A DNA stretch of 64,000 bases. Source: Minisyncoccota bacterium (GTDB lineage: Bacteria > Patescibacteriota > Minisyncoccia > Phycocordibacterales > DATDWN01). The translations under genes and the position numbers were made by a program. The notes under the pieces are model-generated. The model was not told where the DNA came from. It saw only the letters and a list, made by a program, of their open reading frames with translations, and made no database searches. Shown piece after piece: positions 5,209 through 43,710 of this stretch. The stretch is from the NCBI GenBank assembly GCA_041658985.1, contig JBAZZC010000001.1:1813-65812 (forward strand), given 5' to 3'. How positions within the stretch are numbered: position 1 is the stretch's first letter; each line of letters opens with the position of its first letter.

Positions 5209-5249
5209 TATAATCTACTACAATATATCGTAGTAAATTAATACAAAAA

Positions 5250-7331: not shown

Positions 7332-7473
7332 TTAATTTATCCGCACACCAATTTTGGCATTGTGTTTTTGTTGCTTATTAAATATTTATCACAAAATATT
7401 ATTCTGATACTTTATAAATCAAATCATCATTTGTGAAAACACGATGCAACGATGCCAAATTTGGTGTTCGGAT
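7329..7473. repeat. family-1 inverted-repeat element copy 1 (TIR ATCCGCACACcaattttggcattg / caatgccaaatttggtgttcGGAT)
   Basis: 24-bp terminal inverted repeats enclosing about 95 bp AT-rich core; same ends at 6 other loci. Confidence 0.75.
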
Positions 7474-7745
7474 TAATTGTATCAAAATTAAAATACCCAC
7501 GCATTATCGTGAGTCTCTTAATGGGACTACATAGATATTCCCCTACTACAAAAGTAGGTGGGTGCTCGCAAATGCACTCGTCAGAATGACAAATAAATTT
7601 GTCGCTCATCGTGGTACAAAAATATAAAGCTCCCTAAAAATTGTTATCCGGAAAATATCAAATGTAGTCCTGTATGAATTATACCTCCACCACAAACCAC
7701 TTCAATATTGCCCCAGGTAAATAAATGTGCTGTATAAAGAAAATT

Positions 7746-8327: not shown

Positions 8328-8392
8328 AAATAATAAGTTAAAAGTTTATAAAGTCATAAAGTCCATAAAGACTTGCAAAGATAATACAGGAA

Positions 8393-9160
8393 TTATTTTG
8401 TTAACACAATCGGGTCGCCATTAGTAATCGCAATGGTGTGTTCAAAATGAGCTGCTACAGAACCATCTGCTGTTTTGTATGTATAACCATCTTTAGCTAA
8501 AACAATCTTATCTCCACCCAATGTAAGCATCGGTTCAAGAGCAATGACCATTCCAGGCCGTAGAAGCTCACCCCCACCTCTTTGCCCCTCGTTGGGTACA
8601 AATGGGTCCTCATGGACCTTGTAGCCCACTCCATGGCCCGCCAAACCACTACAAATACCATATCCCAGGGCCCTGGCAAAGGATTCTATGGTAAAACCTA
8701 TGTCTCCTATATAACCACCCCCTTTGGCAGCTTTTATACCTAAACCGAGAGCTTCTTTACAATGTTCTATTAGTTTTTTATTTTTTGGAGAAATTTTTCC
8801 AACCCCAACAGTAATAGCACTGTCCGTAATAAGTCCCCCATGAATCAAACCCATATCCAGAGAAACAACATCTCCTTCCTGTAAGATAAGTGGGTCTTCA
8901 TTTGGAATGCCGTGAACGATTTCATTGTTTACTGAAACACACAAAGCAGAAGGGTAAGGTCTTTTTGCCCCGCGAGGAGTGTAGTTTAAAAAAGCCGGAG
9001 TGTCTCCCCCCTCTTTCACCAGTTGTCTAGTAAAATCCTCCAGCACCTCTGTAGAAATTCCAGCTTTAACTTTTTTTGAAACCTCCGACAAAATAAAAGC
9101 GAGGCGTTTGCCACCCTCTCTTAAAATTTCTATTTCCTTTTGGGTTTTAATCGTTACCAT
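8393..9160 (-). CDS. map: methionine aminopeptidase type I
   Basis: pita-bread fold motifs (D..D..H..E..E), HGIGxxxHE-like region; follows adk as in spc operon. Confidence 0.9.
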   Translation of the reverse strand: MVTIKTQKEIEILREGGKRLAFILSEVSKKVKAGISTEVLEDFTRQLVKEGGDTPAFLNYTPRGAKRPYPSALCVSVNNEIVHGIPNEDPLILQEGDVVSLDMGLIHGGLITDSAITVGVGKISPKNKKLIEHCKEALGLGIKAAKGGGYIGDIGFTIESFARALGYGICSGLAGHGVGYKVHEDPFVPNEGQRGGGELLRPGMVIALEPMLTLGGDKIVLAKDGYTYKTADGSVAAHFEHTIAITNGDPIVLTK

Positions 9161-9741
9161 CCTAATTTCTGAAGAATTTCTTTGTGAACGTTTTCTATTG
9201 ATTGTTCCCCATTAATTTCAGTAAATGTATATTTATCATCTTTTTTAAAATATTCAACAGCAGGATAAGTGTCTCTTTCAAACCAATCCAGTCTTTTTTC
9301 TATTCCATAACTGTTATCATCATCCCGACCACGAGCCAAAAGTCTCTCTCTAGACCATTGCCTAGAAACATTCATATAAACAACATTTATTTTTCTACTA
9401 TAAAACTCTGAAATAGAACTAAACACAACCGCTTCTGGTAATGACCTACAGATACCATCAAGCATAATATGTTCACCATCTTTAATTGTCTCTATGAGCA
9501 TATCCGCCCAAAATCTAACCGCTAAAAAGTCAGGCTGTCTTTCTCCTTTTTTATATATTTCTAGTGCCAGTTTATTTGAATATCCCTCTCCGGCAATAAA
9601 CTCCCGAAATTTTGAACCTGTTTCCAGATGAATAATTTCTTTCCCGGGGTCTTTTTCTTTTAAGAGTTTTTCTAAAAGAGCAACTTGGGTACCCTTGCCA
9701 CATCCAGAACGTCCTATAAATATAAATGTCTGAGGAGTCAT
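9154..9741 (-). CDS. adk: adenylate kinase (divergent)
   Basis: P-loop GRSGCGKGTQ, LDGxxRS, position secY-adk-map. Confidence 0.75.
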   Translation of the reverse strand: MTPQTFIFIGRSGCGKGTQVALLEKLLKEKDPGKEIIHLETGSKFREFIAGEGYSNKLALEIYKKGERQPDFLAVRFWADMLIETIKDGEHIMLDGICRSLPEAVVFSSISEFYSRKINVVYMNVSRQWSRERLLARGRDDDNSYGIEKRLDWFERDTYPAVEYFKKDDKYTFTEINGEQSIENVHKEILQKLGW

Positions 9742-9768
9742 AAACTAAATTATAGCAAAAATACTTTC

Positions 9769-9905
9769 ATCCGAACACTAACTCTGGCATTGTCTCTGTG
9801 TTGCTATTCGGATAATAAAATAAATTATAGTAAGCTTGTCTAATTTACAAGTTAAGGTATAAATCGTGAGAGACGATGCAACGATGCCAGAGTTAGTGTG
9901 CGGAT
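9769..9905. repeat. family-1 inverted-repeat element copy 2
   Basis: ATCCGAACACtaactctggcattg ... caacgatgccagagttagtGTGTGCGGAT. Confidence 0.75.
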
Positions 9906-9967
9906 AAATAAACAGCGAACCGTGGAGCGAGAAGTCGCCCCACGGTGTAGTCGAAAGGTACAATGCC

Positions 9968-10654
9968 CTAGGGAGAGATGACTTCGAACGTGTCATCCCC
10001 CACACTCTTCACGTAGAGAGCGTTCGCCTCGGCTAGAAGCCGAGCGATGACCGGTGGGTGGTGAGCCATGTACACGTAACCCACTGGAGCACTCATGATG
10101 CACGAGCCAGTTCCTGGTGGTCTGTACAAACTCATGTCAATCGTCCCTTGCTGGCGAACGACTTGTAGAACCTTGTCCGCCCCGAAGCAGATTTGGTCCT
10201 GCGGGATAAGTCGTCGGCTTTCACCGACAACCGTCTCGAGAACGAAGCGCCGATGCGTCGGCCCCTCATCCTTGGGAACTGGAGTGTATCCGCAGGACAT
10301 CGCGAGCATCTCCGCGAAGTCGCCCACCTCAGACCACGACCTGAGATATGGGGCGTAGAGACATCTCCCGCCGGCATCTCGCAACCACCCAGCTGGGGTC
10401 CATTTCAACAGGGCTTTGCCACGATACGCCGCCACACGAACCCCGTTGAGACAGGGTCCATCATCAATCATCCAATCAATGAGTAGGTAGTCCCTTTCAC
10501 GAAGACCACCATTCATTATCTTGAATGAGTCAGGCTTTTCTGGACCTCTTCCAGCTCTGATTCTTTCAATCTCTTCCCTTGTAAAATGGGTCGTTTCGGG
10601 ATAAACCTTGGGTTTTTGGTTCCAGTCCCTTTTCGGCTTTGGCCATTTTCCCAT
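9968..10654 (-). CDS. GC-rich orphan protein A (unknown function)
   Basis: about 55% GC coding with AGGAGG SD 8 nt upstream of ATG at 10654; hairpin terminator 9918-9962; inserted between secY and adk. Confidence 0.6.
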   Translation of the reverse strand: MGKWPKPKRDWNQKPKVYPETTHFTREEIERIRAGRGPEKPDSFKIMNGGLRERDYLLIDWMIDDGPCLNGVRVAAYRGKALLKWTPAGWLRDAGGRCLYAPYLRSWSEVGDFAEMLAMSCGYTPVPKDEGPTHRRFVLETVVGESRRLIPQDQICFGADKVLQVVRQQGTIDMSLYRPPGTGSCIMSAPVGYVYMAHHPPVIARLLAEANALYVKSVGDDTFEVISP

Positions 10655-10759
10655 GGGTTTTCCTCCTTTCCTTGGGAATCCAATCAAAAACTACCACAAG
10701 ATGTGGCTGTATGTCAATAGATTATATTAAATTTAAAAATCAAAATATTTAAACCACTA

Positions 10760-10877
10760 AAAACTTTCAAATTTGGATGAAATTCGACGTGAGAAATTAA
10801 AAAGATGAGGAGCCTTACTTAGTGGTAAGGTGATGAATATTTTTAATTTGGGAACGAGGATTTCGCCAAATTTGGAA
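10760..10877. repeat. family-2 structured palindromic element copy a
   Basis: aaactttcaaatttgg...gagCCTTACttagtgGTAAGGtga...cgccaaatttgg; three nested helices. Confidence 0.7.
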
Positions 10878-10880
10878 GTT

Positions 10881-12152
10881 TTAATATTCCCTAATAGAAA
10901 CCTGTGCATCAATCTTCTTAATCAAATCAATAACTACAGAAACTACGATGAGAAGTGACGTTCCACCAATAGATATCGCTGTGATACCAGTAAGACCGCT
11001 CATGGCCAAAGGAAGAACAGCAATAAAACCCAAAAAGAGTGCCCCAATTAGAGTTAGCCGAGTTAATATTCTCGAGATATGGTCCGATGTTGATTTGCCA
11101 GGTCTTACCCCTGGAATAAATGCTCCGTTTTTTTGAAGATTTGTTGATATTTGGTCTGGGTCAAATGTAACGGCAGTATAAAAATAAGTAAACACAAATA
11201 CCAAAAAGAAATATGCTCCGGCATAAAACCAGCCATTCGCCAAAATATCCAACAAAAAGGTTGACACTGATTGTACTAAGGCGTTACTAGCACCCTGCAA
11301 AAATCTTAGTATCATTTGTGGAAATAGAAGTATTGAAAGGGCAAAGATAATTGGAATAACCCCCGCTTGATTTATTCTAAGTGGTAAATATGTTGATGTT
11401 CCCCCATAAACTTTATTTCCTCGAACTTGTTTTGCATAGGTTACTGGTATTGGTCTTTCCGCTTCGGTGATAATAACCACACCAACAATAACAAGAGCTG
11501 ATATGACAAGAAAGACTAAGTAAAGTGGTAATTGTGAAGCCTCAAAAGAAAAAACCAGTTGACCGATTGTTGCCGGCAAAGATGCAACAATACCAGCAAA
11601 GATGATAAGTGAGACACCATTGCCAATACCATATTCAGAAATAAGTTCACCGACCCACATCAAAAGTACCGACCCAGCTGTTATAACCAAAAGATTCGTA
11701 ACTAATTCAAGGGAAGTAAGATGGGCTAAGATTTGCTGATTTTCTAAGAGTTTTATAAAACTGAAAGCTTGAATAATAGCAAGTGGAATAGAAAGTATTC
11801 TGCTGTACTGAGCAAACTTTCGTCTACCAGCTTCTCCTTCTTCCTGATACATTTCCTTTAATTTGGGAAACATAATAGTTAGAAGTTGCATAATAATTGA
11901 TGATGTGATGTACGGACCAACACCAAGCATCACAATAGAAAGTTGGGCCAACCCACCGCCAGAGAAAAGATTGAGAAGCCCAAAGAATTCATTGCCAGCA
12001 AAAAACTGAGCTAATTTAACATGGTCAACTCCAGCAATAGGGACAGCAGCAAAAACACGAAACAAGACAAGTGCAGAAAGTGTAAAGAATATTCTTTTTC
12101 GTAATATTCTGTCTTGAAAGATAAGGGTGAATTTATTAAAAAGGTCTTTCAT
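10881..12152 (-). CDS. secY: preprotein translocase subunit SecY
   Basis: 10-TM protein with SecY signature regions; follows rplO. Confidence 0.9.
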   Translation of the reverse strand: MKDLFNKFTLIFQDRILRKRIFFTLSALVLFRVFAAVPIAGVDHVKLAQFFAGNEFFGLLNLFSGGGLAQLSIVMLGVGPYITSSIIMQLLTIMFPKLKEMYQEEGEAGRRKFAQYSRILSIPLAIIQAFSFIKLLENQQILAHLTSLELVTNLLVITAGSVLLMWVGELISEYGIGNGVSLIIFAGIVASLPATIGQLVFSFEASQLPLYLVFLVISALVIVGVVIITEAERPIPVTYAKQVRGNKVYGGTSTYLPLRINQAGVIPIIFALSILLFPQMILRFLQGASNALVQSVSTFLLDILANGWFYAGAYFFLVFVFTYFYTAVTFDPDQISTNLQKNGAFIPGVRPGKSTSDHISRILTRLTLIGALFLGFIAVLPLAMSGLTGITAISIGGTSLLIVVSVVIDLIKKIDAQVSIREY

Positions 12153-25858: not shown

Positions 25859-28800
25859 TTATTTTTTAACAAACTCAAAACTTTTAATAACATCTTTTAA
25901 CTCCTTAAATTTGAGTGCTTTTTCATAAGGGGTCTCAACGAGAAATCCGAATAATCCGCCTTTCAAATTGCTATCTAATTTTATATTTGAACCATTTTCT
26001 GTTATCCACCCTTTAGCAATTTCTTTACCGTTGAGTAAAACCCTAACTATGTTTGGGTCTTCCTCTACACCATGAAGCACAGATAATCTTCCACCATCAA
26101 AAACCACACCTTTCATTTCTTTATAACCACTAAACCATTCGTTTTTGTCAAATGCTTCAAGAAATGCCTCACGAATACTTCTGTTTTCTATGCCATTCTG
26201 AAATTTATCATCTAAGACTAATATTTTTCCACTACCAAATGGCCGTTCCTGGGCAATTTTTAAACCTTCAATTTCCATAGTTTTAACACCATTCCTGTCT
26301 AATATATCGACAAAAGTCTCTTTAAATGGAACACGTATTTGGGAAACTTCCACAGCTGATGGAGTTGTTTTTTTAACAGCAAAGACATCTCTTGATTCAA
26401 GTGGTTGCACTACTGGAATCACTTCTGGTTCAGGAGGCATTTCAACCTTAGTGATTTCTGCTTCTGAAACATCTGGCACATCTGGCACATCTGATGTTGC
26501 TTTTGGCATAACCGCTTGTGACTCATTAACTTTTGGTGTAAACATCTCTCCGCCAGTTTCTTCAAAGGTTACTACCTTTCCGGTTTTTGTATCAACCATG
26601 TCAATTGATTTTCCCCCACGCTCATAAACCAAGTGTCCATGATTATCAACACCAAGGTGTTCACCCTTAAACATCATTGCACTATCACCGCCAGTGTCGC
26701 CCGGCTTATAGAAACCATACTCTTTTGCAATTTCAACAGATGGTTTGTCCATAAAATTGGTTTTGATTTCTTGTGGAATGTGGTCGCCATATTTTCTTAT
26801 AACCGCCGCTTTCAAATCAAGAATTGTTTGCCAACCTCCTTGGGAAGACGCCTCAACCCTCACTTGAGATACGTCTACAACTTTTGGACCTTCTGGTATT
26901 TGTGGTTTTGGAACAGCTGGCGTCTCTGGCGGTACCACTTTTGCAGATACGGGCGAAACGACAGCTTTTGGTCTGGCTATGCCGTCAAAAGATTTTGTGC
27001 CTTCAACTCTTGGCCTATCCATTATTTGACTCCCACCTAAACCCCCACCAGTACTGGCTAATAAAGGGGTTTCTAAAAGAGACTGAGTCAAACCAGCCAA
27101 GATACCAGTTCCTGCCCCCGCACCAACCATTATCATAGCTTTTTTAACCCTTTGTCCTTTCATTCTTCTTTTTTCTAATTCACGGGCCTCCATATATTTT
27201 TTTTCCTTTTGTTCAGATGTTACTGATGGGTCTCTGGAAATATAGGTTGCTTCATATTCTTTTCTTATTTCTTCATTTTCTCTTTCTGTTTTTTTGCCAT
27301 ACCGCTTACCAAAATATGTAGAACCTAGAGCCCCAGCGGCACCACGGACTATACGTGTCCCAGCAATTGATGCGCCAAAGGCAAGACCCCCAGCCACACC
27401 AGCACCAGTACCGATGAGTATTGGAACAAAAGCCAGACGAGCTGTTATCGGTACCTTTGACCACACTTTTAAGGCCCTACTCGCTCTTTCTTTTACCCAT
27501 TCTGTTCTCTCGTTTTTTGGTAATGATTCCCTGATTTGTTCCTGTAATATGTTCCATTCTGCGTCAGCATTTTCTAAACGTCTTGATAATTTTTCAAATT
27601 CATCCCCTATTGATTCAGTATCTTTTTCCACCTTCGTTATTTTTGCCTCTATATAAGCATCCAAAGTTTGACCTATTCTTTCTTTTGCCTCTAATTCCAA
27701 CCTTCTTGCATTTTCCACTGCGTCACTCATTGATATCCTGTCACTAGAAACTAGATTTCCCAAAAGACCAATAAATTTTTGTGTGTTTGATTTTCTCTTA
27801 TCATAATCAGCCATAGCCCTTATATATTCCAAACGAGCTTGTTCTAATACTTTTTCAGGATTTTGCTCGAGTACCCCTGAATCTAAAACTACAGAAACCC
27901 CTTCTTCGGATTCACCAAGAATACTAAGTATTTCTTTGTGTTCTTCTTCAGTAAAAGCAAGTCCTGGTCGAGAATAATCAAATAGGATTTTCAAGACTTC
28001 TTGTTTTGTAATTCCACCCTGTTTTAAGGTATCAAGAACAAGTTTAGCTCCTATATCTACTTTATTTAAACCTTCTATATATAAAATTAGTTTTTCTGGA
28101 ACGACAAACACTTTCTCACCTGTCATATTTTCATCCAAGATAATTTCGTGTCTAAGTAGTTCCGCAACTAATTTACGCAAACCCCTTGCTCTTGGTACAT
28201 TTACAATATTTTGCAATGGATTTTCGCTTTTTCTGATTTCTTCTATTGCTTTTATTAAGCCGTCCGGAGAATAACTAATACCACTATCTTTATATACACC
28301 AAGATGACCCAGCTTCTCATATAAATCCTTAAAATCACTAGCTACAACATCTGGACCCCCTTCAGCTTCAATAAGATTTTTAACATCATCCGTCCTTTCT
28401 ATGATAGGTTCAGGTTTTTCTAAATAACTTAAAACCATTGCGTACTGTTCTGGAGAGATATTACCAATATCACGAGCTTCATTTAAAATTTCTCTGACTC
28501 TCTCTTTTGAATTAGCATATTCCAGTTCCCATTGATAACGCCTGAAAGATTTAGCAGTCACGGGGTCACTCTCCGAGGCAACTAATCTAGTAAAAAACTC
28601 TAAAACACGTGAATCTACTCTAAAACTTTCTTTGGGCTCCGTTTCAATTTTTTCTGGAACAATGGGTGGCAACAGTGCATTAGAAATTTCTGGTTCTGGT
28701 GCTAAATCAGTTGGTCTTTGTTTTAAAACGTCAGCAAGGTCGTGCACCCCAGAAGGAACCTGTGGTTCTTCTTCTCGTTGCATATCATTTCTAGCTAAAA

Positions 28801-28930
28801 TATCCAGAGGAGCTTTTCTTGGTGGGGTTAGACTAGAATCTAAATCCGTAGCTGGTTTTGTTTGATCAATAACACCATTCATGTGTGTATTGTATCCCGT
28901 TAGAGTTTTACAATCAACTAAAAATTTCAA
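25859..28930 (-). CDS. giant membrane protein (1023 aa; cytoplasmic N-domain, Gly-rich TM hairpin, large extracytoplasmic C-domain)
   Basis: long ORF between fusA and tuf; central GxxxG-rich hydrophobic segments; no catalytic motif recognised. Confidence 0.6.
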   Translation of the reverse strand: MKFLVDCKTLTGYNTHMNGVIDQTKPATDLDSSLTPPRKAPLDILARNDMQREEEPQVPSGVHDLADVLKQRPTDLAPEPEISNALLPPIVPEKIETEPKESFRVDSRVLEFFTRLVASESDPVTAKSFRRYQWELEYANSKERVREILNEARDIGNISPEQYAMVLSYLEKPEPIIERTDDVKNLIEAEGGPDVVASDFKDLYEKLGHLGVYKDSGISYSPDGLIKAIEEIRKSENPLQNIVNVPRARGLRKLVAELLRHEIILDENMTGEKVFVVPEKLILYIEGLNKVDIGAKLVLDTLKQGGITKQEVLKILFDYSRPGLAFTEEEHKEILSILGESEEGVSVVLDSGVLEQNPEKVLEQARLEYIRAMADYDKRKSNTQKFIGLLGNLVSSDRISMSDAVENARRLELEAKERIGQTLDAYIEAKITKVEKDTESIGDEFEKLSRRLENADAEWNILQEQIRESLPKNERTEWVKERASRALKVWSKVPITARLAFVPILIGTGAGVAGGLAFGASIAGTRIVRGAAGALGSTYFGKRYGKKTERENEEIRKEYEATYISRDPSVTSEQKEKKYMEARELEKRRMKGQRVKKAMIMVGAGAGTGILAGLTQSLLETPLLASTGGGLGGSQIMDRPRVEGTKSFDGIARPKAVVSPVSAKVVPPETPAVPKPQIPEGPKVVDVSQVRVEASSQGGWQTILDLKAAVIRKYGDHIPQEIKTNFMDKPSVEIAKEYGFYKPGDTGGDSAMMFKGEHLGVDNHGHLVYERGGKSIDMVDTKTGKVVTFEETGGEMFTPKVNESQAVMPKATSDVPDVPDVSEAEITKVEMPPEPEVIPVVQPLESRDVFAVKKTTPSAVEVSQIRVPFKETFVDILDRNGVKTMEIEGLKIAQERPFGSGKILVLDDKFQNGIENRSIREAFLEAFDKNEWFSGYKEMKGVVFDGGRLSVLHGVEEDPNIVRVLLNGKEIAKGWITENGSNIKLDSNLKGGLFGFLVETPYEKALKFKELKDVIKSFEFVKK

Positions 28931-29188: not shown

Positions 29189-31330
29189 CTATTTTCTAGA
29201 CTCAATAATTGTCAAAGCGACGTTTGGTGGCACCACTTCATAATGATCAAACTCCATCATAACCGACCCTCTTCCTTGTGTCATTGAACGAATATCAGTT
29301 GTGTATCCAAACATTTCAGACAAAGGAACCTTAGCGTGAATTACTCGGAGCATTCCTCTCTCCTCCATTCCTTCTATCTGCCCTCGTTTACCTGAAAGTG
29401 AGCCTGTGATATCTCCCATAAATTGTTCTGGCATGATAGCATCAACTTTCATAATAGGTTCAAGTAAGACAGGTCTGGCTCTTTTGGCTGCATCTTGGAA
29501 AGCTTGAGAGGCTGCAATCTTGTAAGCAATTTCAGATGAGTCAACATCATGATAAGAACCGAATGTAAGTTCGCAGGAAATATTTACCATTTTGTATCCA
29601 GCAACAATTCCTCTATCCATTGCCTCATGAACACCTTTTTCACAGGCAGGAATAAATTCTTGTGGGATAACGCCCCCTTTGATTGAGTCAATAAATTCAA
29701 AGTCTTCATATCGTTTAACATTCTTAGGAATTTTTGCTCCCTCTTCAATTTTCTCAAGAGGTTTGATTGTGAGTTTTACGTGACCATACTGACCTTTTCC
29801 ACCAGTCTGTTTGATATATTTGTGTTCCGCCTCGGCTGTCCCAAGAATTGTCTCTCTGTATGCTACTTGTGGTTTACCAACATTTACCTCAACACCAAAT
29901 TCTCGTTTCATGCGGTCAACCATAATTTCTAGATGTAGCTCTCCCATACCAGAGACAATCGTCTCGGCTGTTTCGGAATTTGATGACACAATAAACGTTG
30001 GGTCCTCGTCAGAAAGTTTTTTGAGGGCCATACCCATTTTTTCCTGGTCAGCTTTTGTTTTTGGTTCAATACGAAGTGAGACGACAGGAGCAACGAATTT
30101 AATTGGGTCAAGAAGAATTGGTTGGTCCTCGTCACAAAGTGTGTGAGATGTTTTTGCAGACTTTAATCCCACCGCTGCTGCGATTTCTCCGGCAAAAACT
30201 TTTTTTACTTCCTCACGTTTGTCAGCCTGAAGTCGCACAATACGACCCAACCTTTCTTTCTCACCTGTGGTTGAGTTATAAATATATGTTCCAGACTCAA
30301 TTGTCCCAGAATAGACACGAAAGAAAGTTAGCTGTCCAACGAATGGGTCGTTTTGAAGTTTGAAAGCAAGAGCAGAAAAAGGTTCTTCATCAGAAGGTTT
30401 CCTAAATATTTCATCACCTGTTTTTGGGTCTAAACCTCTGACGGGAGGGATGTCTAGTGGAGACGGGAGATATTCTACAACTGCGTCTAGAACAAGCTGG
30501 ATACCTTTGTTTTTCAAAGCAGAACCCGCCATGACAGGAACAATTTTTACAGCAAGACAGGCCTTACGAAGAGTCTTTTTTAGCTCTTCTATTGTTGGTT
30601 CCTTACCATCTAGAAACATTTGCATTTGCTCATCATCTTGTTCAACAATTTTTTCTATAAGCTCTGCGCGATATTTTTTTGCTTCATCCAAATATTCGGC
30701 GGGAATTTCTGACTCACGAATATCCATACCCATATTTCCTTCAAAGTGATAAGCCTTCATTTTCAAAAGGTCAATCACCCCCTCAAATTTATCCTCTAGA
30801 CCAATAGGAATTTGTAGGCGAACTGCGTTTTTTGTCAGTCTGTCTAAAATGGAGGCAAAAGAACGCTCAAAAGATGCACCCGTTCTATCAAGTTTGTTTA
30901 TCAAACAAATTCTTGGCACAGCGCCATCATCAGCATATCTCCAGTTTGTTTCTGATTGTGGTTCAACTCCGGCAACTCCGTCAAAAACCACAACCGCACC
31001 GTCAAGAACACGAAGTGAACGTTTTACCTCAGCTGTGAAATCAATGTGTCCGGGAGTATCAATAATATTGAAACGATAGGTGGGTTTGTCTCCCTTTGGC
31101 ATGTAGGTAGGATTCCAGAAACAAGTGATGGCTGCAGCAGTAATGGTAATACCTCTTTCACGCTCTTGTTCCATCCAGTCTGTCACCGTCTCCCCCTCGT
31201 GCACTTCACCAATCTTGTGAGTCATTCCTGTATAGAAAAGCACACGCTCTGATGTGGTTGTTTTACCAGCGTCAATGTGCGCTATTATACCAAAATTACG
31301 AACCTTATCTAGGGAATAGTCTCTATTCAT
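29189..31330 (-). CDS. fusA: elongation factor G
   Basis: [23 protein letters not shown] and full-length EF-G domains. Confidence 0.95.
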
Positions 31331-31453
31331 AAGTTAAATTATTGTAAATAAAAATGCCCGGAGGCACACAGGAAACTATATACCAAAAACCATTTTTGAG
31401 CAATAATGCAAAACTCCCAGTTAAGGGTTTATATTACTCACGTATAAATCAAT

Positions 31454-31984
31454 TTATTTTAAATTACTAATTACTTCATCTATAAGATCCTTTAATTGAC
31501 CTCTGTTTGATATGACCCTTGCTTTATCAAGGTTAGTGAAGACAAGATTACCACCAATTTCACTCAATGTTGTCAAACCACTACCAAGAGAATCCTCGGC
31601 ACCATATGATCCACCAACACCAAATTCTTGAGTTAATTCATATCTGTGGTCAGTTGGTGCATCTATTATTTGAGATACCTGATTTGGTTCTAGAACCATT
31701 TTGATAGTAAAAGTTATATTATCTCCTTGACCAGGAATTCTTTGAATTGATACTTCTAATGGGTTTCCAGTATTCATAAATCTATCTTCAATAGTAAAAA
31801 TCCTCGGAGTCATGTTCCCTCTTGGAACTAATTCTCCTAATATCTTTATTTTAGGATTTATTTCTTCACTTAACGCAAATCCTTGCATTTGCTGTGCGTC
31901 TTCCTCTTTCCTTTTTTCAGCCATAAAAACGTCATACTCATTTGGTTTATCTTCACTCGCTGGTTGAACTCCTTCTTCACTCAT
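31454..31984 (-). CDS. hypothetical protein (176 aa)
   Basis: ORF preceded by family-1 IR element; no motif recognised. Confidence 0.45.
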   Translation of the reverse strand: MSEEGVQPASEDKPNEYDVFMAEKRKEEDAQQMQGFALSEEINPKIKILGELVPRGNMTPRIFTIEDRFMNTGNPLEVSIQRIPGQGDNITFTIKMVLEPNQVSQIIDAPTDHRYELTQEFGVGGSYGAEDSLGSGLTTLSEIGGNLVFTNLDKARVISNRGQLKDLIDEVISNLK

Positions 31985-31993
31985 AATTTTTTT

Positions 31994-32064
31994 ATCCGAA
32001 CACTAACTTTAGCATCGCTCCGCCGTGTTTCGATGAAACACAATGCCAAAGTTAGTGTGCGGAT
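31994..32064. repeat. family-1 inverted-repeat element copy 3 (short form, 71 bp)
   Basis: ATCCGAACACtaactttagcatcg...caatgccaaagttagtGTGTGCGGAT. Confidence 0.7.
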
Positions 32065-32168
32065 GAATTAAAATATTAATACCCTAATTTTACCCCGACC
32101 ACAAGAATTTACAACCCTGTAATTAAATCCCTTCTTTTCCCCTAACAACTTAAACCAAACCCCCACTC

Positions 32169-32196
32169 AATCTACTACGATATATCGTAGTAGATT
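32169..32196. promoter_or_regulatory. 28-bp perfect palindrome aatctactacgatatatcgtagtagatt (copy downstream of yerC-like gene)
   Basis: exact palindrome, identical copy at 32641-32668, near-identical at 5212-5239. Confidence 0.6.
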
Positions 32197-32203
32197 GATA
32201 ATA

Positions 32204-32608
32204 TTATTTTGAATATTTTCTCCAATATTTCTTTCCAACCGGTGGAGGCATTATTCCCCCAACAGTTAGTATTCCCCATATTATTTTTTCAAAATCCAAT
32301 TTTTGTTTTTTTGAAATCTTGAGAAGAGTATCGTACTTTCCAATTTCAATACCCAGAGACATCATTGCAACCGTGGACGGACTCACCTTTAATATTTCCA
32401 CAATCCTATGTTGTGGAGTTTTACTATCAAGCATGAGAATAATCGCCAGACGTTTAGCGAGCATGGTTCTTTCTGTATCCGAAAAAAGTTCATTTACTAC
32501 CGAGGAGAGATATTTCTTGTTTTGTGCTTCCCCAAATGTTAAAAGAAGCTCACTTAATAATTTCTCCAATAATTCTGGGTTTAATTTTTTACTTGATACG
32601 TGTGGCAT
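32204..32608 (-). CDS. TrpR-fold DNA-binding protein (YerC/YecD-like)
   Basis: LFSDTERTMLAKRLAIILML...QHRIVEILKVSPSTVAMMS resembles TrpR/YerC helix-turn-helix core; flanked by identical palindromes. Confidence 0.5.
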   Translation of the reverse strand: MPHVSSKKLNPELLEKLLSELLLTFGEAQNKKYLSSVVNELFSDTERTMLAKRLAIILMLDSKTPQHRIVEILKVSPSTVAMMSLGIEIGKYDTLLKISKKQKLDFEKIIWGILTVGGIMPPPVGKKYWRKYSK

Positions 32609-32640
32609 AGATTATATTTACAATTAATTTTAATATCTTT

Positions 32641-32668
32641 AATCTACTACGATATATCGTAGTAGATT
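32641..32668. promoter_or_regulatory. 28-bp perfect palindrome (copy about 35 bp upstream of yerC-like start); candidate operator
   Basis: identical to 32169-32196. Confidence 0.6.
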
Positions 32669-32752
32669 AAGAACTGAGTGTCAACATCAAAAAGCATTTT
32701 TGAACAATGACAAAATAATTAAAGAGCTTCTCACAAACCAAGGGCAGTTATA

Positions 32753-33028
32753 TTATTTTTCACCCAGTTCTTCTAGAAGCTTACCAAAGTGCTTATTGGT
32801 CCAGCCGTGGTAATGTATCTCCCTGATTCCACCAGCATCACCCCCACTCGCCATACCTCTTATTTCATTAATTACAGAACAATATTCTGACATTGAAATA
32901 TTTCTCTCTTCTCTTAAACTACTTAGTCTGCTATCAAAATTATCAGGAAGACCGCCGGGTGCCCCTTCCTCGGAGCTACTCTTATCTGCACCGTCAAAAT
33001 CACCGTATTCCGGCTCTTCGTTTGACAT
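32753..33028 (-). CDS. hypothetical acidic protein (91 aa)
   Basis: ORF in rpsG-fusA island. Confidence 0.35.
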   Translation of the reverse strand: MSNEEPEYGDFDGADKSSSEEGAPGGLPDNFDSRLSSLREERNISMSEYCSVINEIRGMASGGDAGGIREIHYHGWTNKHFGKLLEELGEK

Positions 33029-33125
33029 GTTATTAGACTAGAGTAATAACACACTAATTTTATTCCTCCCCCAGATAAATACAAGACATGGCAACCAGAA
33101 TTTCTCTTTGGGAAGATTCTATGGC

Positions 33126-33356
33126 TTAAAGTCTACCTTTTAGGTTCCTTACTTCTTGTTCCAAATCTTCAAGCCTTTCATGGTCAGACTTGTGGTGAAC
33201 AAGAGCTTTTTGAATAAATGGCCAGATAATAAGACCAATAATTACGTCAAAAATAACAATTAGAAGTATCTCAAACTCCCAATGTGCCGGGTCTCTTACT
33301 AAATCAAAAAATGATTCCATGAGGTTATTTAAGACAACCAGACAAACAAAATCCAA
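33126..33356 (-). CDS. small membrane protein with C-terminal coiled coil (76 aa)
   Basis: one TM helix then charged helix. Confidence 0.35.
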   Translation of the reverse strand: MDFVCLVVLNNLMESFFDLVRDPAHWEFEILLIVIFDVIIGLIIWPFIQKALVHHKSDHERLEDLEQEVRNLKGRL

Positions 33357-33367
33357 AACAAAAAACT

Positions 33368-33787
33368 TTACATTACTGGTTTATTTGGAAATAAGTGTTT
33401 TACCGCTATTAACAACATAACAGTAATTTGTGTAATAGTTGCAGTAATTAAAAGTCTAAAGCTCCACCCTTCAATCTCAAATCCACCAGTCTTAAAACCT
33501 TGGAAAAAAGCGATTACAAAAATAGCAACGGTTTCTGCTGCCAAAAACCAGAATAAGATAAAAAGTGTATTTTTCTTTAAACCTATATCTTGCTCAAATG
33601 CCCTGTTTTCTAACTGTCCTTTTTCTAGAGCAATTTTTTCCTGAATGCTTCTTTCGCCGAACGGTCTTATATTATATTGCAGAGGTCTCTTAATTCCCTG
33701 CTGATGAACTAGTGAAGCACGAATTTCTTTAAATCTTTCTGAAAGATCAGTATTTCTCTTAGAAAATGACTCGGGAATTTCTGTCAT
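33368..33787 (-). CDS. membrane protein (2 C-terminal TM helices) translationally coupled to ImmA/IrrE peptidase
   Basis: ATGA overlap with upstream gene; hydrophobic C-terminus. Confidence 0.5.
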   Translation of the reverse strand: MTEIPESFSKRNTDLSERFKEIRASLVHQQGIKRPLQYNIRPFGERSIQEKIALEKGQLENRAFEQDIGLKKNTLFILFWFLAAETVAIFVIAFFQGFKTGGFEIEGWSFRLLITATITQITVMLLIAVKHLFPNKPVM

Positions 33788-34338
33788 GGTAATAATTTTA
33801 ATCGCTCGAGTCTTATGCTCATTGTGGAGACGGAAACATTAAAGACTTTAGCACATGATTCTACATCTCTTAAACTCTCCCAGGCCTGAACTATTAACTC
33901 TGAAGGCATTATTAAAGCATACGCAAAATTATTCGCTTCGATTTCCATTTGACTAATTTCTGCTTCATCCAGACTAAACAATGCTCTACCCCCGTCAAAA
34001 AAGTCACTGTCAACAATAATTCCCTCAATTTTTATCTTATCCTTATGTAAAAAATAATGACCCAATTCGTGAGCTAGTGTAAAGTTTTGTCTTTCTTGAG
34101 ATTTACTACTATTAATTGCGATGTGAAATTCGTAAGTCTTCACACCACTAGAATCTTTCTCCTCATACGTTATCGCCCCTGATAAGTTTTTTATAGAATC
34201 CTCTGAAAATTCAAACGATTGTATTTTAAGTTCAAAGATTGAATCTGTTATGTTTTTATATGGAAATGGAGATAAATCCAGAGGATTATATTGTTTTCTT
34301 ATTTCATTGGCCTTAGACTCACAATCAGCTCTGTTCAT
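33784..34338 (-). CDS. ImmA/IrrE-family (COG2856) zinc metallopeptidase
   Basis: HELGHYFLH HExxH motif in characteristic context ...FTLAHELGHYFLHKD...E..NxFAxxLLMP. Confidence 0.75.
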   Translation of the reverse strand: MNRADCESKANEIRKQYNPLDLSPFPYKNITDSIFELKIQSFEFSEDSIKNLSGAITYEEKDSSGVKTYEFHIAINSSKSQERQNFTLAHELGHYFLHKDKIKIEGIIVDSDFFDGGRALFSLDEAEISQMEIEANNFAYALIMPSELIVQAWESLRDVESCAKVFNVSVSTMSIRLERLKLLP

Positions 34339-34575
34339 AGTTATGATTATACACCTTTCTAAATATTTGTTTCAATCTTAGTGTGATTGTGTAAAAATCT
34401 TAATTCTAAGTATTATATAAAATAAAAAGTAAACTTGTAGACGAAGATTTTTGTGAGGATTTTTGTTGAAGTTCGAAGCTCGCAGGTTTTTTCTGTGACC
34501 AAAACGTACAACAGTACGTTGCGTGGAACAGATAAAAACCGAGAGCAAAGAAATTCGGCAAAAAGACCACAAAAA

Positions 34576-35055
34576 CTACCAAGCAAAATGGGCAAAGGCC
34601 TTGTTTGACTCCGCCATTTTATGCGTATCTTCTCTCTTCTTCACTGCCTTACCTTCATTTTTTGAAGCTAGTATAATTTCGTCAGCTAAGCGAGATGCCA
34701 TAGGAGCACCTTTGCCTGAGCGAGCTGAATCAATAATCCATTTCATTGCGAGAAACGAACGTCTTTCTGGTCGAACTTCTCGAGGAATTTGGTAGTTAGC
34801 ACCTCCGACTCGACGAGAGCGAACTTCTGTAAGAGGGCCTGTATTTTTTAATGCTGTATCAAAAACTTCCATTACATCCACTGTCGTAGCTGTGCCTAGT
34901 TTCTTAATAATCTGTTCAAATGCATCATAAACAATTTTTCGAGCTGTCGCTTTTTGTCCACGAATCATTATGTAATTGATAAATTTACCAACTTTCTCAG
35001 AATCATATTCGTGATCTTTACCTACTATATTTCTGTTTGTTATTTTTCTTCGCAT
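34576..35055 (-). CDS. rpsG: 30S ribosomal protein S7
   Basis: S7 motifs across length. Confidence 0.95.
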   Translation of the reverse strand: MRRKITNRNIVGKDHEYDSEKVGKFINYIMIRGQKATARKIVYDAFEQIIKKLGTATTVDVMEVFDTALKNTGPLTEVRSRRVGGANYQIPREVRPERRSFLAMKWIIDSARSGKGAPMASRLADEIILASKNEGKAVKKREDTHKMAESNKAFAHFAW

Positions 35056-35104
35056 TTTTGTGTTTGTATTTTACTTTATGGACTTTATGAACTTTATAGA
35101 CTTT

Positions 35105-35518
35105 TTACTTCCCCTTAGGTTTCTTTACACCATATCTAGACCTACCCTGCATTCTTTTTTCTACTCCTGTTGCATCGAGCTTGCCTCGTACTATTGTATA
35201 TCTGATACCAACATCCTTTACTTTTCCACCACGAAGCAAAACCACTGAGTGTTCCTGTAGTCCATGTCCCATTCCTGGAATATATGCCGTAACCTCCATA
35301 CCATTTGTTAGTCTAACTCTAGCAATTTTTCGAATAGCAGAGTTTGGTTTCTTTGGTGTTTTTGTTGTTACTTTCGTACAAACTCCCCTTTTAAATGAAG
35401 ATGGATAATAGACAGGTCTGTTTGTTAGAGTGTTGAATCCACGAGTTAAAGCAATGGCCTTTGATTTAGGTCTACCTTTTGAGCGTCTTTTTTTAATCAG
35501 CTGATTTATCGTTGACAT
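35105..35518 (-). CDS. rpsL: 30S ribosomal protein S12
   Basis: KPNSALRK-like [16 protein letters not shown]... Confidence 0.95.
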
Positions 35519-35559
35519 TACTTCACTACTCTAATATATATGTATCAAAATTGCAAATA

Positions 35560-35865
35560 CTTGTTTGTATAAACGAAATGGCCCGCCTCCGAAGAGAACG
35601 AGCCTTTGCCCCCGAGTTATTTTTATGTCTCGGTGGGAGGAGCGGAGGAGAGGGGGTGTGGCCAACCAGTTGATTGATTCGCTGTTGTCGCAAGTCGCTG
35701 AACGCCATTGTCGCCGATTGCAAATCTTCGCAACCGGCGAACTTCGCCAGACGCCGATGTCGCAGATCGCTAAACGCCAATTTCGCAAGATGTCGCAAGC
35801 CGCCAGACGCCGTTGTCGCAACGCCAGACCCCTCTCTCCAACAGAAAGCCTATCACACTAGCCGT
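35560..35865. repeat. GC-rich degenerate tandem-repeat region upstream of rpsL (recurring TTGCGACA / GGCGTCTGGCG units); open in all frames
   Basis: 55-60% GC low-complexity block in AT-rich context; 4 spurious overlapping ORFs on both strands. Confidence 0.5.
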
Positions 35866-35978
35866 ATAATGTCAAGCAATTTTTGTATATGAAAAATAGC
35901 CTTACTCTAGGCCTTTATTTAAATTTTACTTACATAAATATGGAGATTACTGTACGAAAAAGATAAATACTAATTTCA

Positions 35979-36593
35979 CTACGGGATTAATCCAGTTATG
36001 AGAGAAAATTCAAAAACAACTAGAGGTAAAACAAATTTCCAAAGGAAGAAAATGAAGAAAATTAAAACAAACAATCCGTTTCGTTCTAGAAAATCACGAA
36101 CACCTTGCATACTATAAGGTAAAATGGAGAAAAGGATTTTTGAACCATCAAGAGGAGGAATGGGTATTAGATTAAACGTGGCCAGAATCAAGTTTATAAA
36201 TACTATGGTAGAAGAAATATATGTAAATGCCTGTCCAAATTGAGAAGTTATCCCAAAACGAATAAGCAGACCAAAAAACAAGGCCACACAGATATTAGAC
36301 GCTGGACCAGCAAGAGCCACCATGGCCTCTCCCCATCTTTGATTTCTTAGATTATATGGATTGAAAGGAACAGGTTTTGCCCAGCCAATTATAAAACCAC
36401 CAAACATATATGACATTACAGGCAAGAGAAAAGAGCCAAACCATTCTAGGTGTTTCATTGGGTTAAGAGTCAACCTGCCCTGAAATCTTGCTGTATTATC
36501 CCCTTGTAGATAGGCAACGTAACCGTGAGAGACCTCATGGATGACGATAGAAAAAATTAGTATGAGAATTGAAAAAATAAAATCGAGAGACAT
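35979..36593 (-). CDS. site-2 protease family (peptidase M50) intramembrane metalloprotease
   Basis: HEVSHG HExxH in TM helix and NLIPIPPLDG motif. Confidence 0.75.
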   Translation of the reverse strand: MSLDFIFSILILIFSIVIHEVSHGYVAYLQGDNTARFQGRLTLNPMKHLEWFGSFLLPVMSYMFGGFIIGWAKPVPFNPYNLRNQRWGEAMVALAGPASNICVALFFGLLIRFGITSQFGQAFTYISSTIVFINLILATFNLIPIPPLDGSKILFSILPYSMQGVRDFLERNGLFVLIFFIFFLWKFVLPLVVFEFSLITGLIP

Positions 36594-42964: not shown

Positions 42965-43710
42965 CAAATGTGGTAAAAATAAAAGCACACGGAGGCGTTG
43001 CCTCCAAAGTTGTTTGTGTTATACTTATGACATGGCCTTACGAAAACAAAATTTTGTTCCCGGGGAATTCTATCACCTATACAACCGCGGCACCGACAAA
43101 AGAATTATTTTTGCAGATAAAAAAGATTATGAACATTTTTTATTTTTGATGCACATCTGCAATACCACCAAGAATATAGAGTCAAGAAATATTAATGAAA
43201 CCTTTAATCGTGAAGAAACTCTTGTTGACATAGGAGCATACTGCCTCATGCCAAATCATTTTCATTTTTTAGTATACGAAAAAACAGAAGGTGGGGTTTC
43301 TAAATATATGCTTAAACTAATGACCGGATATTCAATGTACTTTAATAAAAAATACGAGCGCACAGGAAAATTATATGAGGGGGTATTCAAATCAATTCAT
43401 ACACAAAACGACAACTATTTAAAATATCTATATTCATATATTCATTTAAATCCCGCCAAATTAATTGATAAGGATTGGAAAACGAGCAAGAATAGAAATG
43501 TTGTAAACTTATTAAAATATGTTTTTGATTATAAATATTCAAGTTTACAAGAATATGTGGGTTTAAAATTTAAAATTATAAATCCAATACCATTCCCTAC
43601 TTATTTCAAAGAACCCGATGACCACAAAAAAGAGCTTTTTGAATGGCTCAGTCTCAAAGAAGATTAGCTGATACGGAGGCGTTGCCTCTGTATTGCCTCT
43701 GTAATTTAAA
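42965..43710 (+). mobile_element. IS200/IS605-family minimal insertion sequence (tnpA only) with subterminal hairpins
   Basis: Y1 HUH transposase gene flanked by same-orientation hairpins acggaggcgttgcctcc at 42977-42999 and 43673-43690. Confidence 0.6.
43014..43667 (+). CDS. tnpA: Y1 HUH transposase (IS200-like TnpA / RAYT-like)
   Basis: HUH motif NHFHFLV and catalytic tyrosine motif YSYIHLNP. Confidence 0.7.
   Translation: MCYTYDMALRKQNFVPGEFYHLYNRGTDKRIIFADKKDYEHFLFLMHICNTTKNIESRNINETFNREETLVDIGAYCLMPNHFHFLVYEKTEGGVSKYMLKLMTGYSMYFNKKYERTGKLYEGVFKSIHTQNDNYLKYLYSYIHLNPAKLIDKDWKTSKNRNVVNLLKYVFDYKYSSLQEYVGLKFKIINPIPFPTYFKEPDDHKKELFEWLSLKED

Follow-up and report, generated by a model that had tools for sequence, protein, structure and literature searches.

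A hypervariable rpsG-fusA spacer in a Minisyncoccota bacterium and its conserved pair of a minimal M78 peptidase and a two-helix membrane protein

Genes and features of the rpsG-fusA spacer

We analyzed a stretch of 64,000 nucleotides of DNA from a Minisyncoccota bacterium (contig JBAZZC010000001.1 of GenBank assembly GCA_041658985.1; this whole stretch is hereafter called the window). The subject of this study is the spacer between rpsG and fusA in the str locus, and above all two adjacent genes in this spacer, which encode a zinc metallopeptidase of the M78 (ImmA/IrrE-type) family, pep184, and a partner protein with two transmembrane (TM) segments, tm139. According to the list of open reading frames (ORFs), the gene order on the minus strand is rpsL (35105-35518), rpsG (34576-35055), six ORFs and fusA (29189-31330). 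The spacer is 3.2 kb long and all six ORFs lie on the minus strand. An initial annotation of this DNA proposed that the six genes form one accessory island for defence or addiction, placed inside an essential operon. All the features that it listed are present; they are collected in Table 1 together with those found in this study.

Table 1. Features in and around the rpsG-fusA spacer (positions in the window)
Feature	Position	Strand	Basis
pep184, M78 Zn metallopeptidase	33784-34338	-	Pfam PF06114
tm139, 2-TM partner	33368-33787	-	hydrophobic segments and ATGA overlap with pep184
tm76/64, small single-TM protein	33126-33320 (ORF 33126-33356)	-	hydrophobic segment, homologue in the related contig L262
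acid91, acidic 91-aa ORF	32753-33028	-	isoelectric point 4.57
PAL-1, 28-bp perfect palindrome	32641-32668		exact-repeat search
trpR134, TrpR/YerC-fold helix-turn-helix (HTH) protein	32204-32608	-	Pfam Trp_repressor
PAL-2, 28-bp perfect palindrome	32169-32196		exact-repeat search
Inverted-repeat element resembling a miniature inverted-repeat transposable element (MITE)	31991-32067		relatives in the window and empty site in L262
unk176, ORFan	31454-31984	-	no homologue
box A	31384-31404	-	direct repeat
Terminator-like hairpin 3' of rpsG	34503-34520	-	RNA fold
Sigma-70-like promoter of the pep184/tm139 pair	34346-34375	-	promoter scan, 11/12 positions
Third palindrome copy, 2 mismatches	5212-5239		after the rplT stop

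The spacer is a hotspot of lineage-specific cassettes

Comparison with relatives revealed that the contents of the spacer are mosaic. The closest relative of pep184 (85% aa identity) is carried by two short contigs, L259 and L260, whose DNA aligns to the window at 77-80% nucleotide identity in three blocks. These blocks are the spacer just 3' of rpsG, the peptidase gene with the gene of the 2-TM protein and, after 105 bp, the fusA promoter region with fusA itself. Positions 31407-33360 of the window, which hold the other four genes, have no counterpart in these contigs. Another relative, represented by contigs L261-L268, shows 83% nucleotide identity in rpsG and fusA, and its upstream synteny is the same as that of the window (RecJ, RNase H, ComEC, superoxide dismutase, metallo-beta-lactamase, L28, M50 peptidase, S12 and S7). 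From S7 to elongation factor G (EF-G), this relative has a 68-aa ORF, a palindrome, a TrpR-like gene, a palindrome, an 83-aa Phd/YefM-like ORF, a 77-aa ORF, a palindrome and a 99-aa ORF, and its rpsG-fusA spacer contains neither the peptidase gene nor the 2-TM gene. Thus, the six genes do not travel as one island as had been proposed: L259/L260 have the pair without the other four genes, and L261-L268 have the small TM gene and the TrpR-like gene without the pair. The 83-aa and 77-aa ORFs of L262 (8545-9107) form a cassette of their own in the same hotspot, bounded by copies of the 28-bp palindrome. They are a probable type II toxin-antitoxin (TA) pair and have their own palindromic operator-like site (AAGTTTATCTTAAGATAAACTT).

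We also surveyed the rpsG-fusA gap in the 15 closest S7 relatives from metagenomes, four of which lie on contigs too short to tell. In five of them the gap contains 0.7-2 kb of unrelated ORFs, in three it measures only 10-109 bp, and three, with at least 5 kb of downstream sequence, show no fusA after rpsG. Because the gap contents vary among these relatives while more distant bacteria keep a gap of 8-100 bp, the spacer is a hypervariable, lineage-specific cassette hotspot. In the window it may be divided into at least three modules. Module A would consist of pep184 and tm139, a self-contained and probably translationally coupled pair with its own promoter-like site. Module B would be made of the small TM protein, a palindrome, the TrpR-like HTH protein and a second palindrome, and module C of a MITE insertion and an ORFan.

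A direct repeat, box A (ATTGCTCAAAAATGGTTTTTG), overlaps the possible fusA promoter, and a 90% copy is located 5' of PAL-1 at 32688-32708. Box A is kept 5' of fusA in L259 and L262, and as a 21-nt repeat (ATTGYTCAAAAAKGSTTTTTG) it recurs at cassette boundaries upstream of palindrome copies; the box A copies of L262 are at 9037-9057 and 9725-9745. It resembles a mark left by repeated insertions or recombination events at the fusA promoter.

The TrpR-like gene, the small TM gene and the palindromes

The TrpR-like protein trpR134 (134 aa) passes the Pfam Trp_repressor model narrowly (28.1 bits, cutoff 27, E 2.1e-6). It was rejected as a TrpR orthologue, with 14.9 bits against a cutoff of 67.25 for the NCBIfam TrpR equivalog TIGR01321, and its sequence has no meaningful match in the PDB. 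The L262 homologue is 94% identical at the aa level and occupies the same position between rpsG and fusA, with the small TM gene preceding it in both genomes. The ratio of nonsynonymous to synonymous substitution rates (dN/dS) between the window and L262 is 0.03 for trpR134, 0.02 for fusA and 0.06 for rpsG. Because of this identity, a dN/dS near that of fusA and the same position, trpR134 is a conserved resident of the spacer in this lineage, unrelated to the peptidase pair, and not the accessory regulator that it had been taken for. It is also unlikely to be a recently mobile element because it is syntenic and 94% identical in L262. A 41-nt inverted repeat around trpR134 was considered as transposon ends and rejected; its extension beyond the palindrome has only 7/10 matches in AT-rich DNA.

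For the small TM ORF (tm76/64), the likely start is the ATG at 33320, which gives a protein of 64 aa, as judged from the L262 homologue and the gene call in L002. The protein has a single TM segment and a charged C-terminal helix, and no family match was found in Pfam or NCBIfam. It is 80% identical to the 68-aa ORF of L262 that lies directly 5' of the palindrome and the TrpR-like gene, and it is absent from L259. It belongs with the TrpR-like module, not with the peptidase pair.

The palindrome AATCTACTACGATATATCGTAGTAGATT occurs in two exact copies, PAL-1 and PAL-2, where shuffled sequences give an expectation of 0. The initial annotation described trpR134 as precisely bracketed by them. Two exact copies do flank the gene; they are not private to it, since a third copy is located 3 nt past the rplT stop and is followed by a canonical terminator. 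These three are the only copies in 64 kb. PAL-1 contains the -10 hexamer TACGAT of the only good promoter-like site of trpR134 (TTGACA-17-TACGAT, 32656-32684), and both the window and L262 show this overlap (TTGACA/TTGACT-17-TACGAT). Four of the five copies at the locus (window and L262 together) are identical at 28 of 28 positions, and the fifth has one mismatch. The homologous block that holds trpR134 shows only 85% DNA identity between the window and L262, which argues that the palindrome is under selection or gene conversion. PAL-2 is located 7 nt past the trpR134 stop and, with its flanks, forms a hairpin of -21.6 kcal/mol (z = -6.1).

PAL-1 is probably the operator of trpR134 and would serve in autoregulation. 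As in autoregulated repressors, the palindrome covers the -10 of the gene's own promoter-like site and the protein has a TrpR/YerC-YecD-type Pfam domain, although trpR134 differs from TrpR in a 40-aa C-terminal extension. The palindromes may also act as 3' hairpins and as recombination points at cassette boundaries. Every copy is found a short way past a stop codon, and the gene that ends there is transcribed in the direction of the copy (rplT, acid91 and trpR134 in the window; the 68-aa ORF, trpR134 and the 77-aa ORF in L262). The copies can each form a stable hairpin and they bound the L262 cassette, so they also mark recombination and cassette boundaries. The homology block of L262 (7923-8443, corresponding to 32686-32167 of the window) ends exactly at the outer edge of PAL-2, and the flank 3' of PAL-3 in L262 matches the flank 3' of PAL-2 in the window. 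The Phd-like cassette of L262 sits exactly between a palindrome and the PAL-2-type flank, with a second palindrome and box A at its end.

A serious alternative, which we rate slightly below even, is that the palindromes are only structural and recombination elements that set the limits of cassettes, as 3' hairpins, terminators or recombination sites like repetitive extragenic palindromic (REP) elements or attC sites, and are not operators of trpR134. The rplT copy weighs on this side, because it lies between convergent gene ends and is implausible as an operator. The position of every copy after a stop codon, the stability of the hairpins and the cassette indel between the window and L262, which falls exactly at the palindrome, also fit this alternative, as does a gene resembling a REP-associated tyrosine transposase (RAYT) in the window. 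As in REP or attC, the repeat is a short, dispersed, intergenic palindrome at gene 3' ends, and cassettes are gained or lost exactly at it; unlike these, its 28 bp form a perfect palindrome that leaves no loop. The overlap of PAL-1 with the trpR134 -10 in both genomes speaks for an operator, the perfect identity across diverged genomes exceeds what a hairpin needs, and no recombinase or integrase was found in the Pfam annotation of the genes up to 10 kb to each side of the spacer (20 kb annotated).

The RAYT/IS200-like gene is located at 43014-43667 on the plus strand and encodes a Y1 transposase (Pfam Y1_Tnp, 1.8e-7); the match to the NCBIfam REP-associated tyrosine transposase (2.9e-8) is below the cutoff. 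A hairpin (CGGAGGCGTTGCCTCC) flanks this gene at 42990-43005 and 43674-43689 and is found nowhere else in the window. The 28-bp palindrome as the REP of this transposase was therefore rejected, as the gene is flanked by the other hairpin.

It can also be proposed that the spacer is a cassette-capture site that recombines at the conserved 28-bp palindrome without an integron integrase. Integron arrays have an adjacent IntI-type tyrosine recombinase and attC sites; the repeats of this hotspot are perfect palindromes, unlike attC. We consider this proposal less likely than the protease-gated pore that is discussed below for the pair.

Transcription signals around the spacer

About 55 nt 3' of the rpsG stop there is a hairpin (AACGTACtgttGTACGTT) followed by TTTGG, and the RNA fold of 34480-34580 (minus strand) has -27.8 kcal/mol with z = -3.0. 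This stretch is kept in L259. At the equivalent position of L262, reading the sequence by eye suggests a hairpin with a different stem, followed by TTTTGG. The hairpin probably separates rpsL-rpsG transcription from the downstream cassettes.

The pair is preceded by a promoter-like site, TTGAAA-18-TATAAT, which is the best in the region, and both of its hexamers are kept in L259. Since the -10 ends 7 nt 5' of the pep184 ATG, the mRNA of the pair would be leaderless or nearly so. Promoter-like sites are not enriched in the region (16 versus 15.4 in shuffles), and the assignment of the pair promoter rests on match quality, position and conservation, not on the count of sites. A possible fusA promoter, TTGCTC-17-TATAGT, is present in the window, L259 and L262; it comes from reading the sequence by eye, and the promoter scan did not list it. 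These signals suggest that the rpsL-rpsG-fusA operon is split into separate transcription units here.

Placement in an essential, highly transcribed operon had been counted in favour of a defence or addiction module. Given the hairpin after rpsG, the separate promoter-like sites and a spacer that is variable in most close relatives, the location carries little weight and does not imply coupling. If the classic rpsL-rpsG-fusA-tuf operon is indeed broken into separately promoted units in this lineage, with a spacer that behaves as a cassette hotspot, then a location "inside an essential operon" should not be taken too readily as a sign of functional coupling.

The peptidase and the 2-TM protein form a widespread unit

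pep184 (184 aa) contains the motif HELGHYFLH and matches Pfam PF06114 Peptidase_M78 (COG2856) with 75 bits (cutoff 22, E = 5.9e-21). In an alignment of 30 family members, the zinc-site residues H90-E91-xx-H94 and E132 are invariant, and so is E134; E132 aligns with E128, a zinc ligand of CapP (PMC13228613). The family is compact, with about 175-185 aa. PADLOC gave capP at 2e-26 and many RmrA models at up to 3.8e-14, the latter matching just the protease portion, at model positions of about 126-296. Among solved structures, CapP (7t5t, 7.7e-9) comes closest and IrrE (3dte) second, and the alignments with them span residues 65-177 of 291 in CapP and 81-157 of 301 in IrrE, that is, the catalytic domain only. 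Neither an HTH nor a GAF-like C-terminal sensor domain was found in pep184 with Pfam, PADLOC and the PDB alignments. Its best PHROG match is annotated as 'transcriptional regulator'.

The TGA of pep184 overlaps the ATG of tm139 by 4 nt (ATGA). tm139 (139 aa) has hydrophobic segments at residues 73-98 and 109-130, preceded by a variable N-terminus, proposed to be cytoplasmic, and a conserved juxtamembrane helix, EQDIxLKKxTL. In the family alignment, E85/T86 in TM1, Q96 just past TM1 and the run ATITQIT in TM2 are invariant, and the protein ends with LFP. All partners have the same architecture: TM1 with an invariant Glu, a short EEW loop, a Thr/Gln-rich TM2 and a C-terminal LFP. A profile search detected 425 relatives at E<=1e-3 among 1.84 billion representatives, and these approximately 425 members are representatives at 50% identity. 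tm139 matches PHROG 5346 and 35754, both of unknown function, and no HTH match was found in it in Pfam, NCBIfam or PADLOC. An AlphaFold2 (AF2) model built from an 8-sequence alignment was all-helical (7-30, 48-97 and 107-132) with a mean confidence score (pLDDT) of 63; this helical hairpin was set aside for fold search as uninformative at that confidence.

The two genes are consistently found together. A hidden Markov model (HMM) of the partner found it directly 3' of the peptidase in all 30 loci analyzed, with a gap of -4 to +11 nt in 27 pairs, the other three being taken as mis-called starts. The identity matrices of both proteins across the 30 pairs correlate (r=0.79, Mantel p about 5e-4), indicating co-divergence. 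In a tblastn search, a tm139 homologue was directly downstream in 12 of the 13 closest peptidase loci in genomes. The loci include Vogelbacteria, Liptonbacteria, Saccharibacteria, Paceibacterota and some mis-binned metagenome-assembled genomes (MAGs), and none of the other four window genes, nor rpsG or fusA, is nearby in them. The partner HMM recovered every close locus and, in addition, about 13 far more distant M78 genes. Hosts of the distant pairs are Clostridium saudiense, C. paraputrificum, a prophage-like region of Bacillus paralicheniformis, Dehalococcoidia, Kistimonas, a Pseudomonadota MAG and four IMG/VR contigs resembling clostridial phages. The pair thus spans the candidate phyla radiation (CPR), Firmicutes, Chloroflexota, Proteobacteria and prophage-like contigs. 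Compared with L259, dN/dS is 0.03 for pep184 and 0.12 for tm139, values that are approximate as dS is saturated; both genes are under purifying selection. We conclude that the peptidase and the 2-TM protein are a genuine, widespread unit, and the conservation of the pairing, which the initial annotation had left to be checked, holds in 30 of 30 loci. The pair has the architecture of a type II TA-like cassette: two small, co-oriented genes, adjacent or overlapping, that stay paired across varied contexts.

The pair is found at a different position in every genome examined. Among the 11 contexts that were studied, about half are neighbourhoods with restriction-modification (R-M) genes, a recombinase or HigB/Xre-peptidase (TA) genes, in agreement with the defence-like setting that had been anticipated. 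In L083, the pair adjoins HsdR_N/N6_Mtase/Eco57I and Methylase_S genes (type I/IIG-like R-M) just after dnaJ, in a neighbourhood that includes the core genes dnaK-dnaJ. In L254, it comes directly after a cassette of an XRE C-protein, an N6_N4 methyltransferase and an unknown ORF, and the region also has a second N6_N4 methyltransferase, a PvuII-like ORF and a LexA-methyltransferase fusion. Dam and Dcm methylases, MazG and a DUF87 ATPase accompany the pair of L085. In L087, a 589-aa serine recombinase directly precedes the pair, and an 823-aa N6_Mtase is close by. In L256/L257, its neighbours are a P4 cII-like ORF, Beta_protein, a 398-aa M78 protein and HigB, and a serine recombinase gene lies where the contig ends. 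Elsewhere, it lies between recJ and nusA (L091), after an ABC transporter (L258), and among hypothetical ORFs, NYN and SmpB genes (L084 and the P0026 contig). Such mixed contexts are typical of small TA-like or defence cassettes, although this is not a statistical enrichment test. The cluster of HigB, the 398-aa M78 protein, Beta_protein and the P4 cII-like ORF on L256, a Paceibacterota contig, is located at 8113-11275, about 1.9 kb from the pair, and resembles PD-lambda-2.

As the initial annotation stated for this locus, no XRE partner accompanies the peptidase: none adjoins the pair in the window or in nine of the ten other CPR contexts, the sole XRE gene belonging to the R-M cassette. The small ORFs upstream of the peptidase in other loci gave no HTH match. 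XRE-like HTH genes are located right beside the pair in three prophage-like IMG/VR contigs (L094, L099 and L101), an HTH-like ORF is near it in L095, and XRE-like, integrase-like and terminase-like ORFs are near it in B. paralicheniformis (L016); all of these were recognized by eye, with no family search. A distant M78 peptidase gene in an Arenicellales locus (L033, 10001-12709) lies directly 5' of an EF-G gene. It was rejected as a parallel to the str operon; the locus has no rpsG or rpsL match, the EF-G is probably a paralogue and the arrangement a coincidence.

Proposed function of the pair

We propose that tm139 is a membrane-permeabilising effector, whose helices carry the invariant polar residues E, T and Q and whose N-terminus would be cytoplasmic, and that it is controlled by the cytoplasmic pep184. 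The peptidase may keep tm139 inactive, like an antitoxin. Alternatively, on a signal of stress or infection, it may cut the variable N-terminal region at the conserved juxtamembrane helix and thereby release tm139. This proposal is based on the tight pairing, the co-divergence, the polar invariant residues in the TM segments and the variable contexts, and also on the presence or absence of the pair among sister genomes and the TA-like cassette in the L262 hotspot. By analogy with RosmerTA, the mechanism is most likely TA-like or abortive-infection-like. Toxicity, proteolytic control and a function in defence or addiction are what we infer for the pair from these data. The initial annotation saw no recognisable toxin in the spacer; it overlooked the 2-TM partner, which is the obvious effector candidate. 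The combined reading, a hypervariable hotspot with at least three independently inherited modules in the spacer of this Paceibacterota lineage and a pair that is probably TA-like or abortive-infection-like, is in our judgement evenly balanced between being right and wrong.

There is a precedent for an ImmA-type protease with a membrane partner in defence, as had been suggested. RosmerTA systems consist of a Zn-peptidase antitoxin and a toxin whose function is unknown, and their definition requires just 'an antitoxin with a Zn-peptidase' (10.1101/2022.05.11.491447). In the system of Gordonia phage Kita, RmrT carries TM helices at its C-terminus and causes depolarisation and permeabilisation of the membrane, and RmrT and RmrA together protect E. 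coli from two BASEL phages (PMC10440598). Like RosmerTA, the pair described here is a two-gene cassette with an ImmA/IrrE-type Zn-peptidase beside a small unannotated partner, and the Kita partner also has TM helices. In contrast, the PADLOC RmrA models have about 360-400 positions versus the 184 aa of pep184, published RmrA-type proteins often have an N-terminal HTH and pep184 has none, and RmrT toxins are diverse and swap partners, whereas tm139 is one conserved family that co-diverges with the peptidase.

The pair also shares features with CapP/CapH, IrrE/DdrO and ImmA/ImmR: pep184 has the M78 core, HExxH and a downstream Glu, and its gene adjoins its presumed target. Unlike in these systems, however, the neighbour is a 2-TM protein and there is no adjacent XRE-type HTH repressor. 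pep184 lacks the central HTH and the C-terminal GAF-like domain that senses single-stranded DNA in CapP and IrrE. It also differs from CapP in having no cysteine-switch loop, as there is no Cys between H98 and E132 in its sequence (for CapP, PMC13228613), and neither a cyclic oligonucleotide-based antiphage signalling system (CBASS) nor another immune operon lies downstream of the pair. A third system, PD-lambda-2, is an experimentally validated TA-like defence of E. coli that comprises a HigB-like toxin, an Xre-peptidase fusion and a P4-antitoxin-like protein (PMC9519451). It likewise has an ImmA/IrrE peptidase domain in a TA-like setting; its toxin is HigB versus the 2-TM protein here, and its peptidase is fused to an Xre HTH. 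In sum, the pair looks like a previously undescribed relative of the known architecture of Zn-peptidase plus toxin in TA and phage-defence systems, with a minimal peptidase and a conserved 2-TM partner.

Several observations weigh against a TA-like or abortive-infection-like pair. Without the HTH and C-terminal domains of RmrA, CapP and IrrE, pep184 has no evident signal sensor. tm139 is strongly conserved and co-diverges with the peptidase, whereas RosmerTA toxins are diverse and swappable (PMC10440598). The strong purifying selection on the pair since the split of the window and L259 (with dS saturated) fits a physiological role equally well. Ordinary housekeeping contexts make up about half of those examined (L084, L091, L258, the P0026 contig and the window itself). 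Furthermore, 50,697 phage records, Gordonia phages among them, were searched with tm139 and a clostridial partner; there were matches at chance level (E >= 0.5) or none, which gives no sequence link to Kita RmrT.

A bolder version of the effector proposal is that the minimal M78 peptidase and its 2-TM partner act autonomously as a protease-gated membrane pore in abortive infection or addiction, as a system distinct from RosmerTA. The invariant Glu, Thr and Gln would line this pore, and cleavage of the cytoplasmic N-terminal region of the partner would open it or destroy it. The lack of an HTH and of a sensor domain, and a partner that is not swapped, would set it apart from RosmerTA, and it would be common to CPR, Firmicutes prophages and other phyla. 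We regard this version as tentative and rather improbable.

Of the explanations without a toxin, the strongest is that the pair is a regulatory proteolysis module derived from prophage immunity, in which the peptidase, as an ImmA-like anti-repressor, cleaves an XRE-type repressor encoded elsewhere and the 2-TM protein is a membrane tether or sensor that sets the time of peptidase action. All characterised M78 relatives (ImmA, IrrE and CapP) cleave HTH repressors (PMC13228613, PMC10440598), and the best PHROG match of pep184, a transcriptional regulator, points in the same direction. The XRE-like genes beside the pair in L094, L099 and L101, the HTH-like ORF near it in L095 and the XRE-like ORF near it in B. 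paralicheniformis are what this explanation would predict. However, the window and nine of the ten other CPR contexts have no adjacent XRE gene, there are no prophage genes near the pair in the window, and the strict coupling and the co-divergence suggest that the two proteins of the pair have a direct relationship with each other. We consider this explanation unlikely.

Less likely still is a housekeeping role in the membrane of bacteria with small genomes, for example as a processing or quality-control protease with a membrane substrate or adaptor and no part in conflict. Purifying selection on the pair comparable to that on rpsG and fusA, neighbourhoods with core genes (dnaK-dnaJ, recJ, nusA, smpB and an ABC transporter), retention in reduced CPR genomes and a partner sequence unusually conserved for a toxin are all consistent with it. 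A housekeeping pair would hardly be absent from L262 at the same locus and differ in position in every genome examined. Its spread is patchy (CPR, Clostridia, Bacillus, Dehalococcoidia, Proteobacteria and viral contigs), and it repeatedly adjoins R-M systems, recombinases and TA genes.

Finally, the one-island reading, in which the six genes are a single defence or addiction unit with a palindrome-flanked TrpR-like regulator that uses the str operon for expression, finds some support in the tight packing of the genes on one strand between rpsG and fusA and in the TrpR-like protein as the only DNA-binding protein of the interval, but it is very improbable, since the genes segregate independently in the sister genomes (L259 and L262), the four extra genes accompany the pair in none of the other loci, the modules have separate promoter-like sites and hairpins, and the TrpR-like gene is conserved at its position without the pair.

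Immunity in CPR/Patescibacteria is poorly understood, and these bacteria have reduced genomes and an episymbiotic lifestyle. If the proposal for the pair is true, a compact and widespread family of about 425 representatives would be added to the protease-controlled TA and defence systems, and it would be one of few defence or addiction candidates in CPR/Patescibacteria. It would also be a case of an ImmA/IrrE catalytic core that targets a membrane protein instead of an HTH repressor. Because cultivable Bacillus and Clostridium have homologues, the family can be tested directly.

MITE-like element, unk176, acid91 and other features of the window

The MITE-like element of the spacer (77 bp) has family members at about 7339-7474 and 9768-9907, and the terminal inverted repeats of the family read ATCCGmACACyAAyTyTGGCAT. 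It is inserted 8 nt 5' of the unk176 ATG, and its hairpin has a folding energy of -37.9 kcal/mol (z = -8.5). In L262 the site is empty, reading TTTTAATT followed by TAAAAATTATGAGTGAAGAAGG, so the element is a true MITE-type insertion. At gathering thresholds, Rfam gave no match in the whole 64-kb window, hence no tRNA or other known RNA gene was detected. The sole sub-threshold match in 31300-36000 was a miRNA model on the MITE hairpin and was discarded as spurious.

unk176 (176 aa) matches only itself in 5.8 billion clusters and has no family match in Pfam, PADLOC, NCBIfam or PHROG. Its AF2 model, made from the single sequence, had a pLDDT of 42 and was unusable, so no fold search was made. 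unk176 and the 99-aa ORF of L262 have a common promoter region and the same first five codons (MSEEG), and they are unrelated beyond these. acid91 is absent from L259 and L262, its 90% cluster holds two members, and no family match was found in Pfam, PADLOC, NCBIfam or PHROG; it is restricted to very close relatives.

Upstream of rpsL, about 440 bp of GC-rich (46%) non-coding DNA lie between the M50 peptidase gene and rpsL (35551-35990). They contain degenerate repeats of 23-35 nt (CGCCAGACGCC...TGTCGCA) without an Rfam match, and the spacer at this place is just 40 bp in L262. The fusA-tuf junction (25859-28930, minus strand) is also split, by a 1023-aa ORF with no Pfam match and a DUF5663-like ORF of about 100 aa. 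The str operon of this organism is thus interrupted in at least two places, between rpsG and fusA and between fusA and tuf.

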